Source: a virus (Duplodnaviria > Caudoviricetes). Taken from it: a stretch of DNA of 64,000 bases. The stretch is taken from positions 32,001 through 96,000 of the IMG/VR virus record IMGVR_UViG_3300049198_000021. The stretch is one strand, 5' to 3'. Made by a program: the position numbers and the translations under genes. Shown piece after piece: positions 948-60,842 of this stretch; within the stretch, counting starts at the first letter, position 1, and each line of letters opens with the position of its first letter. The notes under the pieces were generated by a model, which saw nothing but the letters and a program-made list of their open reading frames with translations, had not been told where the DNA came from and did not search any database.

Positions 948-1925
948 TCAGGTGGTCAACTGGAAGTGATGAAGCTGGATGACCAGTTCATCGATTCCCA
1001 CCTGATCAGACTTGCCCGGTAGCGGAGAGGCCAGTGCGGCAGCATCCACTTCCTCCACCATCTGTTCGAGGATGGGGGCCACGTCGTTGTAGTTGAACTC
1101 GCCGCGCTTGACGGCCAGAAGGTAGGCGGCGTCCGGGCGGGGAAACGTGATGTGACCGGTCAGCAGCAGTTCCTTGGCCTGCCCGGCGACGCGGATCGCA
1201 TGGCTGATTGCCTTCCAGTCGATGCCTTGGTTGTCCATGGCAGCGCGGGCCCGATCGCCGTAGTTCTCGTAGACCTTCGAATAGATGTCCAGAGCGTTCT
1301 TGATCGAGTTGGTGAATGGCACCTTGCGATCCACCACGTCGAGGTGGAGGATTTCCTTACCGGCTTGGCTCGGGATGTTGATGATCTCCGAGAACTCGTG
1401 AGTCCCGCAGAAGATCGTAAGCTCTGTGGAAAGCTCGCTCAGCTTGGCCGTCGTTCCGTGTTCACGCACAGCGTGATCCAGCATGACGACGAGATCGCGA
1501 CAAGCGGCCATGCGCGAGCCTTTGATGCCATACTTGGCAGCCTGCCGCTGGCAGTAACCGACGAATCCTTTGCACTGCTTGTTGAGCAGCAAGTGCTTGT
1601 TGTCCCGGATCAGTTCCCAGTCGGGGTCCATCTCGACGATTGCCCAATCTGGGGCGAACAGAAGTTCAGTGCCGACGGTATCACCGCTGGTGACCATCTT
1701 GAGGAACTTCTGGAGCGGGAACGACTGATCGTCCACGTCATCCTGCGTGTTCTTCGTGGTGTTGTCGCCGGTTCCCTTGTCGATGACGTTGGGAACACGC
1801 TGGAGCAGGATGTCACGCCCGGAGGGCAGGAACACGCCCTTGAAGTCCAGATCGGACGTTGGGGTGTTGGTGCCGTAGAGGTGCGATCCGTGCTGAATGC
1901 GGAGGAGTGTCTTTGCGGGTTGCAT
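948..1925 (-). CDS. Pol-beta-superfamily nucleotidyltransferase (RlaP / T4 NrdC.11-like)
   Basis: HGSHLYGTNTPTSDLDFKGVF motif (GS...DxD); C-terminal KAISHAIR...LLAVKRG helical domain. Confidence 0.85.
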   Translation of the reverse strand: MQPAKTLLRIQHGSHLYGTNTPTSDLDFKGVFLPSGRDILLQRVPNVIDKGTGDNTTKNTQDDVDDQSFPLQKFLKMVTSGDTVGTELLFAPDWAIVEMDPDWELIRDNKHLLLNKQCKGFVGYCQRQAAKYGIKGSRMAACRDLVVMLDHAVREHGTTAKLSELSTELTIFCGTHEFSEIINIPSQAGKEILHLDVVDRKVPFTNSIKNALDIYSKVYENYGDRARAAMDNQGIDWKAISHAIRVAGQAKELLLTGHITFPRPDAAYLLAVKRGEFNYNDVAPILEQMVEEVDAAALASPLPGKSDQVGIDELVIQLHHFQLTT

Positions 1926-20336: not shown

Positions 20337-21578
20337 TCAACGGGGGAGGATAATGCGAGAATCGTCGAAATATCGGCGAAGCGCCGGCGGGATCGTGATG
20401 CACCCATCCTCGTGCTGGTAGTTCTCGATGATAGCCGCGACGGTGCGGCCGACGGCCAGCCCAGACGCGTTGAGAGTGTGGACGAACTTCGCCTTATCCT
20501 TGTGGTGTTCCTTGTAACGCGTGTTCATGCGGCGCGCTTGGAAGTCCCCGCAATTCGAGCAGGATGCCACTTCCACCCAACGCTTCATGCCGGGGAACCA
20601 GACCTCCAGATCATAGGTGATCGCCGCGCCGAAGCCCGTCTCTTCCTCGCTCAGAAGGACTATCCGATACGGGAGTTCCAGCTTGTCCAAGATCGAGATC
20701 GCCGAGCCACGAAGGAAGTCATGCTCAGCGGCGCTGTCTTCGGGGCGTGTGATGCTGACCAGTTCGACCTTCTCGAACTGGTGTTGACGCAGTAGGCCGG
20801 TCGCGTCCCGGCCCAGCGATCCCACTTCCGAACGGAAGCACTGGGTAAGAGCCACCATGCGGATCGGAAGCTCTTCCCCATTGAGGATACGGTCGGCGAC
20901 GCTCGCCACCAACGGCACCTCACCAGTCGGAATCAACCAACCGCCCGGCACCTTGAAGCTGTCCTCAGCGAACTTGGGAAGCTTGTCAGTCCCAAACATG
21001 GCGTCCTCATTGACGATCACAGGTGGGATGCATTCGATGAAGCCGCCCACGCTGATATGGGTATCAAGCATGAACTGCCCCACGGCCCGGTGCAGCCGGG
21101 CCATGTCACCACGCAGGAAGGGGAACCGCGATCCGGCCAGCGCCGCACCAGTCTCCGGTTCGAAGCCGATCTTTGCGCCTAGTGTGGCGTGATCCTTGGG
21201 TTCGAAGAACGGAATCGTGGGCTCGTAAAGGGTCGCCTGATTGTCCACCGGGACGAACTTGTCGAGAATGTTGGGAAGCTCGCACAGAAGCTGGTTGAGG
21301 TCCCCTTCGTAGATCGCTATGTGTTCTTCTTCGCGTTTGATCTTCTCGTTGAGTTCCCGCACCTTCGCTTTGGCGATTTCCGCCCAGTCCGATCCGCCTT
21401 TGCCGATTTCCTTACTGATCCGATTTCGGTCGGAGAGGAGTTCTTGTGCGCGTGCCTTGTGATGCCGAACGTATTCGTCCAGCGACAAGATTTCAGCCGA
21501 CACAGGAGGAAGCCCGCGTCGCGCCATCTGGCGATCGAACTCAGCCGGGTCCGCCCGAATCATACGGATGTCGTGCAT
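20337..21578 (-). CDS. serS: seryl-tRNA synthetase
   Basis: N-terminal coiled-coil arm MHDIRMIR..., LIPTGEVPL, FRSE...GLLRQHQFEKVELV, TYDLEVW, SCSNCGDFQARR, HTLNASGLAVGR. Confidence 0.95.
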   Translation of the reverse strand: MHDIRMIRADPAEFDRQMARRGLPPVSAEILSLDEYVRHHKARAQELLSDRNRISKEIGKGGSDWAEIAKAKVRELNEKIKREEEHIAIYEGDLNQLLCELPNILDKFVPVDNQATLYEPTIPFFEPKDHATLGAKIGFEPETGAALAGSRFPFLRGDMARLHRAVGQFMLDTHISVGGFIECIPPVIVNEDAMFGTDKLPKFAEDSFKVPGGWLIPTGEVPLVASVADRILNGEELPIRMVALTQCFRSEVGSLGRDATGLLRQHQFEKVELVSITRPEDSAAEHDFLRGSAISILDKLELPYRIVLLSEEETGFGAAITYDLEVWFPGMKRWVEVASCSNCGDFQARRMNTRYKEHHKDKAKFVHTLNASGLAVGRTVAAIIENYQHEDGCITIPPALRRYFDDSRIILPR

Positions 21579-58841: not shown

Positions 58842-58990
58842 CAAGAGGCGGGAGCGATCCCGCCTTTCGCATTGTTAACCCAGTGTTAAGGTTAACATAT
58901 TGGTCTAAGTTGTTAACCATCAAAGTGGAAAAAGTGATTGACCGAATCAGCAAATCGGCCTAGACCCGAATCATCAACCGGAGACAGATC

Positions 58991-59119
58991 ATGCAAAACA
59001 TCCGCAAGAACCCCATCGCCGCCTCGCTCGCCAGCGCCCACCTCGTCCCTCGCAAGGTTCGCGCTCGCAAGGGCAAGGGCTCTTTCCGCCGCAACCCGAA
59101 ACACCGGGGCGCGGCGTGA
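58991..59119 (+). CDS. ArfA-like (alternative ribosome-rescue factor A) peptide, 42 aa
   Basis: MQNIRKNPIAASLASAHLVPRKVRARKGKGSFRRNPKHRGAA; KGKGS(Y/F)xRxxKH signature; module RBS; missing from ORF track. Confidence 0.7.
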   Translation: MQNIRKNPIAASLASAHLVPRKVRARKGKGSFRRNPKHRGAA

Positions 59120-59460
59120 GCGACCGCATCCGCCCCGTGGTTTTCGACTCGGCCCAGATCGAGCCCTTTGCCGCTCGCATCATCGGCATAGCCGCTTCGC
59201 AATTCTGTCGCCTCAAGGAGCGCGAGAAAGAGACCGGAGAGAAGTCGGACCCCTTCGACATGGAAGACGCTCTGATGCACCTCTGGTGGGCTCTCAAGGG
59301 GCTTGACCACATCGCAATAGCGTTGCGCGGCGGCAGGGATTGCGACGACCCGTCTGGCGTTCATTTTTCCATGGTGATGAACGCAGAACACGCCCGGATT
59401 CGCCGCCTTATCATGGAAGAACTCGGAGTCGATCCCGGATCACACCCGCGCTGGAAATGA
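59116..59460 (+). CDS. cassette gene, hypothetical
   Basis: GTGA coupling. Confidence 0.65.
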   Translation: MSDRIRPVVFDSAQIEPFAARIIGIAASQFCRLKEREKETGEKSDPFDMEDALMHLWWALKGLDHIAIALRGGRDCDDPSGVHFSMVMNAEHARIRRLIMEELGVDPGSHPRWK

Positions 59461-59613
59461 GGGGCTTCGGCCCCTCTTTCTTTTCTGGTAACCGTTCGTT
59501 AACCTTAATAAACGGCCCGAAATCGTTAACCATCAAAGTGGAAAAAGTGCTTGACCGAATCAGCGAATCGGCCCATACCCGAATCACCGCAACCAAGCGG
59601 ACGGAGACAGTCA

Positions 59614-60629: not shown

Positions 60630-60842
60630 ATGAAGATCAAGATCAAGACCACCGCCCGCTACACCGCCAAGCGCAAGGCTGCTATCATCGCCGACGTGGA
60701 CAACGGCACTACCACCCTCGAAGAGGTTTGCAGCCTGCACAACATCACAAGCGAAGAGTTCGACGGCTGGCGCAAGTCGCTGGACCGCTCGGGACAGCAG
60801 GGGCTTCGGATCACCCGGCTGCAACACTACCGGGCAGCATAA
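60630..60842 (+). CDS. sciP: SciP-like CtrA inhibitory protein (DUF1153)
   Basis: RYTAKRKAAII..V.NG...LEEVC....ITSEEF..W...LDR.G..GLRITRLQHYR aligns gaplessly with recalled SciP RWVxRRKAEVV..V.GG...LEEAC....LTxEEF..W...IDRHG..GLRxTRxQxYR. Confidence 0.85.
   Translation: MKIKIKTTARYTAKRKAAIIADVDNGTTTLEEVCSLHNITSEEFDGWRKSLDRSGQQGLRITRLQHYRAA

Follow-up and report, generated by a model that had tools for sequence, protein, structure and literature searches.

A conserved phage gene for a minimal ArfA-family peptide, probably made outside tmRNA feedback

ArfA is regarded as a tmRNA-silenced back-up factor restricted to Gamma- and some Betaproteobacteria. An ArfA-like open reading frame (ORF) of only 42 codons in a phage genome thus raises the questions of whether so small a frame is a gene, whether its product is truly an ArfA, and what such a peptide could do in an infected cell. 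The window analyzed here, a stretch of 64,000 nucleotides, comprises bases 32001-96000 of a 176.5-kb IMG/VR virus record that was judged complete and whose nearest isolate is Erythrobacter phage XM05. The DNA of the window was present in several soil metagenomes; two wastewater runs labelled 'RNA-Seq', which are probably DNA, contained just fragments of relatives. Two overlapping frames compete at the locus (window positions, as throughout unless a contig is named).

58991-59119, plus strand: arfA ORF, 42 codons, ATG start, TGA stop
58960-59391, minus strand (opposite arfA): antisense ORF of 143 aa, overlapping arfA, interrupted or split in relatives

The original prediction of a 42-aa ORF carrying an ArfA-like motif proved exact in both coordinates and content. 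Translation yields a very basic peptide of the pattern NPIA...L...L..R....RKGKGSFRRNPKH, with an N-terminal helix segment (N7-P-I-A-A-x-L13), a strand segment around R21-K-V23, and a C-terminal half containing K27-G-K-G-S31-F, R34, and K37-H38. The frame is under purifying selection: differences among close viral relatives were mostly synonymous, pN/pS lay between 0.03 and 0.26 in 14 of 15 pairs, and the copy on contig L008 differed by 8 synonymous changes and 1 non-synonymous change. The ORF could nevertheless be a chance or decaying frame, or the antisense ORF could be the real gene, given that the arfA ORF is tiny, that high-GC DNA yields long antisense ORFs (a crude GC3-based caller favored the antisense one), and that the homologous ORF is unannotated in the GenBank records of phages vB_EliS-L02 and Cr30 and listed as a hypothetical protein in XM05. 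Against this, selection acts on the plus frame, GC3 was higher in arfA (0.84) than in the antisense ORF (0.71), the ArfA profile score exceeds its cut-off, homologues number in the hundreds, and all 39 promoter cassettes as well as the terminators of the region lie on the plus strand. The antisense ORF was rejected as a real gene because it is broken in relatives. This explanation is already effectively refuted, and we leave it only a very slim chance. At the level of sequence, arfA is confirmed as a genuine, conserved phage gene encoding a minimal ArfA-family peptide.

The original prediction had named an ArfA profile as the check on family membership, and the peptide passed it: the Pfam ArfA family (PF03889; gathering cut-off, 25.5 bits) matched at 30.2 bits (E 3e-7) over profile positions 8-43 of 44. 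A six-frame PF03889 search of the whole 176.5-kb record returned a single copy above the cut-off (28.4 bits), and the seven homologues of 43-44 aa (76-95% identity) matched the profile in 7/7 cases. Alignment by hhalign of the phage short-form profile with chromosomal gammaproteobacterial ArfA (Pseudoalteromonas, Vibrio, Photobacterium, Colwellia, and Moritella) gave 98.6% probability (E 1.1e-15) over 40 ungapped columns, with 50% identity in the printed pairwise alignment. In a phmmer search of PDB chains, peptide residues 4-39 matched E. coli ArfA residues 11-46 without gaps, a match that is weak when taken alone (E about 0.5). A Pfam scan to E 10 matched ArfA alone and gave no membership of the BrfA or ArfT families; the NCBIfam library gave no match to the peptide, and PHROGs gave a weak match to one unnamed family.

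The alignment also places the residues on which ArfA function is known to depend. In E. coli ArfA, the A18T variant binds RF2 without activating it, F25 makes a hydrophobic contact with RF2, the Q27-E30 strand pairs with RF2, and the KH motif occupies a pocket of the mRNA channel; just 46-48 residues are ordered on the ribosome, and ArfA(1-40) is inactive (PMC8012679). In the phage peptide, a small residue (A11) stands at the A18 equivalent and a hydrophobic one (L18) at F25, P20-V23 corresponds to the Q27-E30 strand, K27-S31 (KGKGS) to residues 34-38, and K37-H38 to K44-H45, so that the basic channel segment with KGKGS and KH reaches past the equivalent of residue 40. Across the phage ArfA family, N7, A10, L13, K27, G28, G30, and R34 are invariant, P8 and K29 are nearly so, and V23, K37, and H38 join them in closer sets; the conserved positions therefore fall in both halves of the peptide. 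Membership in the ArfA family is thus supported by the profile score above the cut-off, the profile-profile homology, and the KGKGS, KH, and A18-equivalent residues. By alignment the peptide covers E. coli ArfA residues 8-49, in essence the ordered, required part of ArfA with hardly anything added.

The gene follows its own copy of a repeated promoter-like cassette; the elements around it are as follows.

58847..58864, plus strand: hairpin GGCGGGA-GCGA-TCCCGCC with a weak T-tract, read from the sequence, directly past the stop of the preceding 58-aa ORF
58875..58920, plus strand: upstream boxes TTAA-N7-TTAA (58875-58889), GGTTAAC, and GTTAACCAT (58912-58920); repeat families D5, D7, D9, and D11
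58927..58966, plus strand: putative promoter core GGAAAAAGTGATTGACCGAATC, with -35 TTGACC (58938-58943), a 17-nt spacer, and -10-like TAGACC (58961-58966); family D2
58980..58983, plus strand: Shine-Dalgarno GGAG, 7 nt ahead of the ATG, in the leader CGGAGACAGAxCATG; families D13 and D18
59116..59460, plus strand: orf114, 114 aa, from the ORF list; its GTG start overlaps the arfA stop (GTGA)
59459..59485, plus strand: intrinsic terminator GAGGGGC-TTCG-GCCCCTC with a T-run (stem 59459-59476), from the terminator scan; family D12, 10 copies

The first hairpin belongs to repeat family D8, which aligns terminator-plus-promoter modules, and probably terminates the upstream unit, though weakly; because its T-run is short, it was not called by the terminator scan. 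It is followed by TTAA-N7-TTAA and GTTAACCAT, then by GGAAAAAGTG-TTGACC-GAATC, the 17-nt spacer, TAGACC, and the leader. The 22-mer core of this arrangement occurs in 39 copies between 39981 and 62546, all on the plus strand (0 expected by chance), and the arfA copy carries 1 mismatch. A strict sigma-70 scan did not call the arfA core. We nonetheless infer promoter function for the cassette because of its hexamers, their spacing, and the position of the cassette before each ORF. Downstream, orf114 is apparently co-transcribed with arfA, and a strong terminator, the stem of which overlaps the orf114 stop codon, would close a unit of promoter, arfA, orf114, and terminator. Pfam, PHROG, and Atlas contain no family that matches the orf114 product. 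Contigs L008-L010 encode it at 96% identity along the entire length, with a 59-aa gene between orf114 and arfA, and linkage of the two genes is confined to these closest metagenomic relatives and does not extend to more distant phages.

The array as a whole (core GGAAAAAGTGCTTGACCGAATC, 39981-62546, plus strand) has a regular build. The copies examined (50-63 kb) mostly have the TTAA-N7-TTAA and GTTAACCAT boxes and a terminator of the GGGGCTTCGGCCCC type ahead of the core, and behind it a stereotyped GGAG leader and then one to three small ORFs. The order of cassettes varies among close relatives, being arfA-orf59-orf114 in L008-L010 versus orf59-orf58 / arfA-orf114 here. The array also holds a 70-aa DUF1153 / HTH_Tnp_1 protein (SciP-like; 60630-60842, plus strand; E 3.5e-20).

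How, then, would this ArfA be controlled? The E. coli gene runs to 72 codons, encodes a hydrophobic tail, and contains an internal hairpin at which the mRNA is cleaved or terminated; a non-stop mRNA results, and its product is normally destroyed through tmRNA (PMC8012679). The original prediction held that the phage copy ends right after the core, and the sequence bears this out. The TGA lies 11 codons past KGKGSF, compared with 33 in E. coli arfA; the ORF contains neither a hairpin nor a terminator, and the peptide carries no hydrophobic C-terminal tail. The terminator scan found none between arfA and orf114, and the predicted RNA fold of 58975-59200 was no better than that of shuffled sequences (z -1.1). 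A non-stop mRNA with an unstable hydrophobic tail under tmRNA repression is accordingly not what the phage gene presents, although that arrangement is a regulatory feature of enterobacterial genes and lies outside the Pfam definition of the family. Given the early stop, the missing tail and terminator, and the unremarkable fold, phage ArfA would be made as an ordinary protein without tmRNA feedback, and the 'constitutive rescue' originally suggested is a reasonable inference from the anatomy of the gene.

The short form might be thought a peculiarity of this phage. Searches with tblastn found ArfA-like ORFs in phages XM05, vB_EliS-L02, Cr30, CRP-212, and RXM, and weakly in a Microcystis phage; the related phages infect Erythrobacter, Citromicrobium, Caulobacter, and roseobacters. 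The closest homologues in isolated phages are the following.

L002:2498-2626: ArfA ORF of XM05 (XM05_102), annotated as a hypothetical protein
L005:1498-1629: ArfA ORF of vB_EliS-L02, unannotated
L004:1950-2102: ArfA ORF of Cr30, unannotated, overlapping the ATG of the next gene

In IMG/VR, at least 86 contigs carry such ORFs, and nearly all of those among the matches listed stop 3-16 residues past KGKGS[FY]. An exhaustive profile search returned 776 clusters (50% identity) at E ≤1e-3; among the best 135 of these clusters with the motif, the stretch that follows it is at most 16 residues long in 84 and exceeds 25 residues in 34. As 84 of these 135 representatives are short, the stop-terminated form is the common one in this part of the ArfA family and no peculiarity of this phage. 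The original emphasis on the short form as something special stands in part: the form is real here, but it is the majority form among the nearest relatives and also occurs on SAR11 chromosomes. In more distant phage and SAR11 homologues, the equivalent of A18 is K, G, or R, which suggests that the activation mechanism may differ across the short-form clade.

Several longer or unusual arrangements were seen among these relatives. In CRP-212, a 41-aa ArfA ORF (L006:1492-1617) lies wholly inside the acidic C-terminal part of gp38, on the same strand in another frame, and is thus overprinted and unannotated. The same large ORF surrounds the ArfA match in 15 IMG/VR contigs among the matches listed (including L028 and others of L018, L021, L025-L029, L031-L033, L035, and L037), with the frame checked in L006 and L028. 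In L066, L072, L075, L084-L087, L038, and L015, the ArfA core is embedded in longer ORFs that are candidate fusions; a recurrent type places the core between an N-terminal '...QAVAIALSSAGKS' and a C-terminal 'NYTKPTMRKRLF...GQWSARKAQ', and in L015 the core continues into a 137-residue extension at the point where relatives stop.

The C-termini were also compared. The phage peptide ends in RGAA, its relatives in VAA, AWA, or YA, and marine gammaproteobacterial ArfA in LIAA or SKAA. A C-terminal Ala-Ala degron as a general rule was rejected, as the C-termini of the 135 representatives were too varied. The marine gammaproteobacterial arfA genes (L090-L163; Pseudoalteromonas, Vibrio, Photobacterium, Colwellia, and others) all end 16 residues past KGKGS, a tail length equal to that of the active truncated E. 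coli product, and their ends (...ESYLIAA or ...EPYSKAA) resemble an ssrA-type degron.

Whether the likely hosts possess an ArfA of their own bears on what a phage copy could add. A published survey found arfA in 0/2376 Alphaproteobacteria (PMC11633108). In our six-frame PF03889 search of 401 alphaproteobacterial genomes, which are evenly drawn species and include the unpublished and non-matching G044 and G244, 10 matched at E ≤1e-3 and 7 of these exceeded the cut-off; several of the 10 are small, AT-rich genomes. A profile scan of contigs further revealed a 35-43-aa ArfA-like ORF in many Pelagibacteraceae, with the stop about 5 residues past KGKGSF.

L127:2971-3102: chromosomal ArfA-like ORF of Pelagibacter sp. 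HIMB1485, with about 35 further Pelagibacteraceae loci among L091-L167

The HIMB1485 ORF sits amid housekeeping genes, namely those for endonuclease III, DapB, a response regulator, and a PfkB kinase. The SAR11 ORF scores about 23 bits, just under the Pfam cut-off, and has K at the A18 equivalent. Judging from these matches, ArfA is rare but not absent in Alphaproteobacteria, and the short form also occurs as a cellular gene.

Our data favor the view that the phage peptide actively rescues ribosomes through RF2, as a minimal factor whose synthesis escapes tmRNA feedback, and would thereby raise the capacity for tag-free rescue during infection; we regard this as probable, with moderate confidence. 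The Lys/Arg-rich C-terminal half (KGKGSF..R..KH) would enter the empty mRNA channel of a ribosome that has reached the 3' end of a truncated mRNA and stalled there. Host RF2 would gain a beta-strand in its domain II/IV from the middle segment, and the N-terminal helix with its A18-equivalent alanine would help RF2 to open, such that the GGQ loop hydrolyzes the peptidyl-tRNA. Because it would be translated from a normal, stop-containing mRNA, phage ArfA would escape tmRNA tagging and build up each time the cassette promoter is active. Extra capacity for tag-free rescue would thus be given to the infected cell, which is probably an alphaproteobacterium lacking ArfA. Phage translation would regain ribosomes caught on degraded mRNAs of the host or the phage, a contribution that would stand beside those of the 27 tRNAs, the SerRS, and the RNA-repair enzyme that the phage encodes. 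Neither tmRNA nor an RF-1-domain protein was found in the whole phage, and with no such protein of its own any ArfA activity must use host RF2. Weighing against this reading, the ArfA-RF2 pairing can be species-specific: in the presence of E. coli ArfA, Thermus RF2 does not open (PMC8012679). The missing equivalents of E. coli residues 1-7 and the altered positions at the RF2-contacting strand count against it as well.

The same anatomy could serve inhibition instead. As the original prediction also allowed, the peptide might be a mimic that fills the empty mRNA channel and/or binds RF2 without hydrolysis, like E. coli ArfA A18T, so that tmRNA-SmpB is blocked or RF2 titrated and host quality control or UGA/UAA termination is shut down. 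Its N-terminus is shorter than that of E. coli ArfA, several helix, strand, and RF2-contact positions differ from E. coli, the A18-type alanine gives way to K, G, or R in distant short-form homologues, and the C-terminal tail alone would compete with SmpB, the site of which overlaps (PMC8012679). This copy, however, keeps an alanine at the A18 equivalent and a hydrophobic residue at F25, and conservation is no lower in its N-P-I-A..L segment than in the channel tail, which argues against a pure channel plug. A near-identical architecture as a single chromosomal gene among housekeeping neighbors in SAR11 argues in the same direction, since a rescue inhibitor would be harmful there, and trapped ribosomes would hurt phage translation as well. 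We therefore consider an inhibitory role quite improbable.

Returning to active, tag-free rescue, its purpose could be a dedicated counter-defense. Here the same activity would be selected because host abortive-infection systems or toxins cut RNAs (mRNA interferases, anticodon nucleases, and Cas13 or type III accessory RNases), and ArfA together with RlaP-type repair, SerRS, and tRNAs would sustain translation and prevent tmRNA tagging of phage proteins. The SerRS and RNA-repair context put forward in the original prediction is indeed present.

20337-21578, minus strand: SerRS
948-1925, minus strand: RlaP RNA-repair nucleotidyltransferase

The window further encodes a large terminase and contains no Rfam families, and the whole linear record has 27 tRNA genes, clustered at its two ends (record bases 261-2170 and 171618-176288). 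The phage SerRS is at most 54% identical to that of any of the 401 alphaproteobacterial genomes, a level that says nothing about the host. The pairing of ArfA with RlaP, SerRS, and 27 tRNAs is consistent with counter-defense, as are the unannotated ArfA ORF of Cr30, two genes upstream of an RNA ligase, the ArfA of RXM, three genes from an ArdA anti-restriction gene, and the location of arfA among about 39 promoter-driven small cargo genes that form an array. On the other hand, RlaP and SerRS lie 38-58 kb from arfA in the window, and when genes within 3 kb on each side (less at contig ends) were clustered for 80 viral ArfA contigs, no recurrent partner emerged, whether for RNA repair, anti-defense, or otherwise. 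ArfA also requires an empty channel and does not act on ribosomes starved by tRNA cleavage. A dedicated counter-defense role thus appears unlikely, although it uses the same biochemistry as general tag-free rescue and the present data do not separate the two.

What does the locus mean beyond one phage? As a single gene, it adds modestly to an already annotated group of phage ArfA proteins. Citromicrobium phage vB_CbaS-RXM, reported to be evolutionarily close to an Erythrobacter phage, has g10 annotated as ArfA (PMC8953757), and gp30 of pelagiphage HTVC027P is an ArfA that is highly transcribed early and late in infection (PMC12753301). Neither study discusses stop-codon architecture, absence from the host class, or mechanism, and neither tested function; we found no paper that tests a phage ArfA or considers its stop-codon architecture or the mismatch with host distribution. 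The more interesting lead is the under-annotated clade of short ArfA proteins in alphaproteobacterial phages and SAR11. It is conceivable, though doubtful on present evidence, that short stop-terminated ArfAs form a large overlooked clade, mainly of these phages and SAR11, that serves as a phage takeover tool shifting tmRNA tagging toward RF2-mediated release. If so, the clade would extend through Erythrobacter, Caulobacter, roseobacter, SAR11, and related hosts, in a class now scored as ArfA-less; truncated phage products would be protected and ribosomes recycled while phage or host defenses cut RNA, and the selective value would be high enough for overprinting inside a podovirus virion-protein gene. 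A phage ArfA outside tmRNA control, in a lineage whose known hosts are mostly ArfA-less, would be an example of ribosome rescue re-wired by phages. Mechanistic work on RF2 activation could also make use of this natural, minimal ArfA of 42 residues. Published accounts of how rescue pathways are distributed may be incomplete, since small ArfA ORFs have escaped annotation in GenBank phage records and in SAR11 genomes.

Among known systems, E. coli ArfA (YhdL, PF03889; 5MDV, 5MGP, 5U4I, and 5H5U) is the reference, being of the same family by HMM and, by way of gammaproteobacterial ArfA, by profile comparison. The two share the N-x-I-x-A-x-L helix segment with the A18 equivalent, the hydrophobic residue at F25, KGKGS, the R41 equivalent, and the KH motif, and the phage peptide is likewise small and basic and should lack a fixed structure away from the ribosome. 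The E. coli gene has 72 codons and the phage gene 42, the difference being residues 1-7 at one end and, at the other, a C-terminal extension of 23 residues together with the hydrophobic tail; the phage gene has a normal stop and no RNase III or terminator hairpin in the ORF, and the non-stop-mRNA/tmRNA feedback is absent. Several positions preceding or forming the RF2-contact strand also differ (VPRKV versus RQRVE), and the gene is carried by a phage of a lineage known to infect Alphaproteobacteria. The closest isolated-phage homologues, in XM05, vB_EliS-L02, and Cr30 (56-63% identity; 42, 43, and about 50 aa), stop 5-12 residues from KGKGS[FY] and lie in small-gene regions of 150-156-kb phages; their records do not recognize the ORF as ArfA, and their neighbors differ from those in the window. 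RXM g10 is about 40% identical and is annotated at 60 aa, with a 23-residue tail past the core; like the phage studied here, RXM combines a PF03889 peptide with a SerRS, and the hosts are Alphaproteobacteria. HTVC027P gp30 is, like our gene, a phage-borne PF03889 peptide with an alphaproteobacterial host.

Outside the family, BrfA of Bacillus subtilis and ArfT of Francisella embody the same concept, that of a small basic peptide whose C-terminus enters the empty mRNA channel and through which a class I release factor is recruited. Like ArfA, BrfA contains a KH motif and contributes a beta-strand to RF2, and it is made from a non-stop mRNA; BrfA and ArfT are nevertheless families distinct from ArfA (PMC8012679), so that their likeness to the phage peptide is functional and conceptual. 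Phage translation helpers such as tRNA sets and aminoacyl-tRNA synthetases are comparable in that they, too, are phage-encoded means of supporting or re-tuning host translation. Some mycobacteriophages carry tmRNA. With ArfA the peptide is released free of a degradation tag, and the host must supply RF2.
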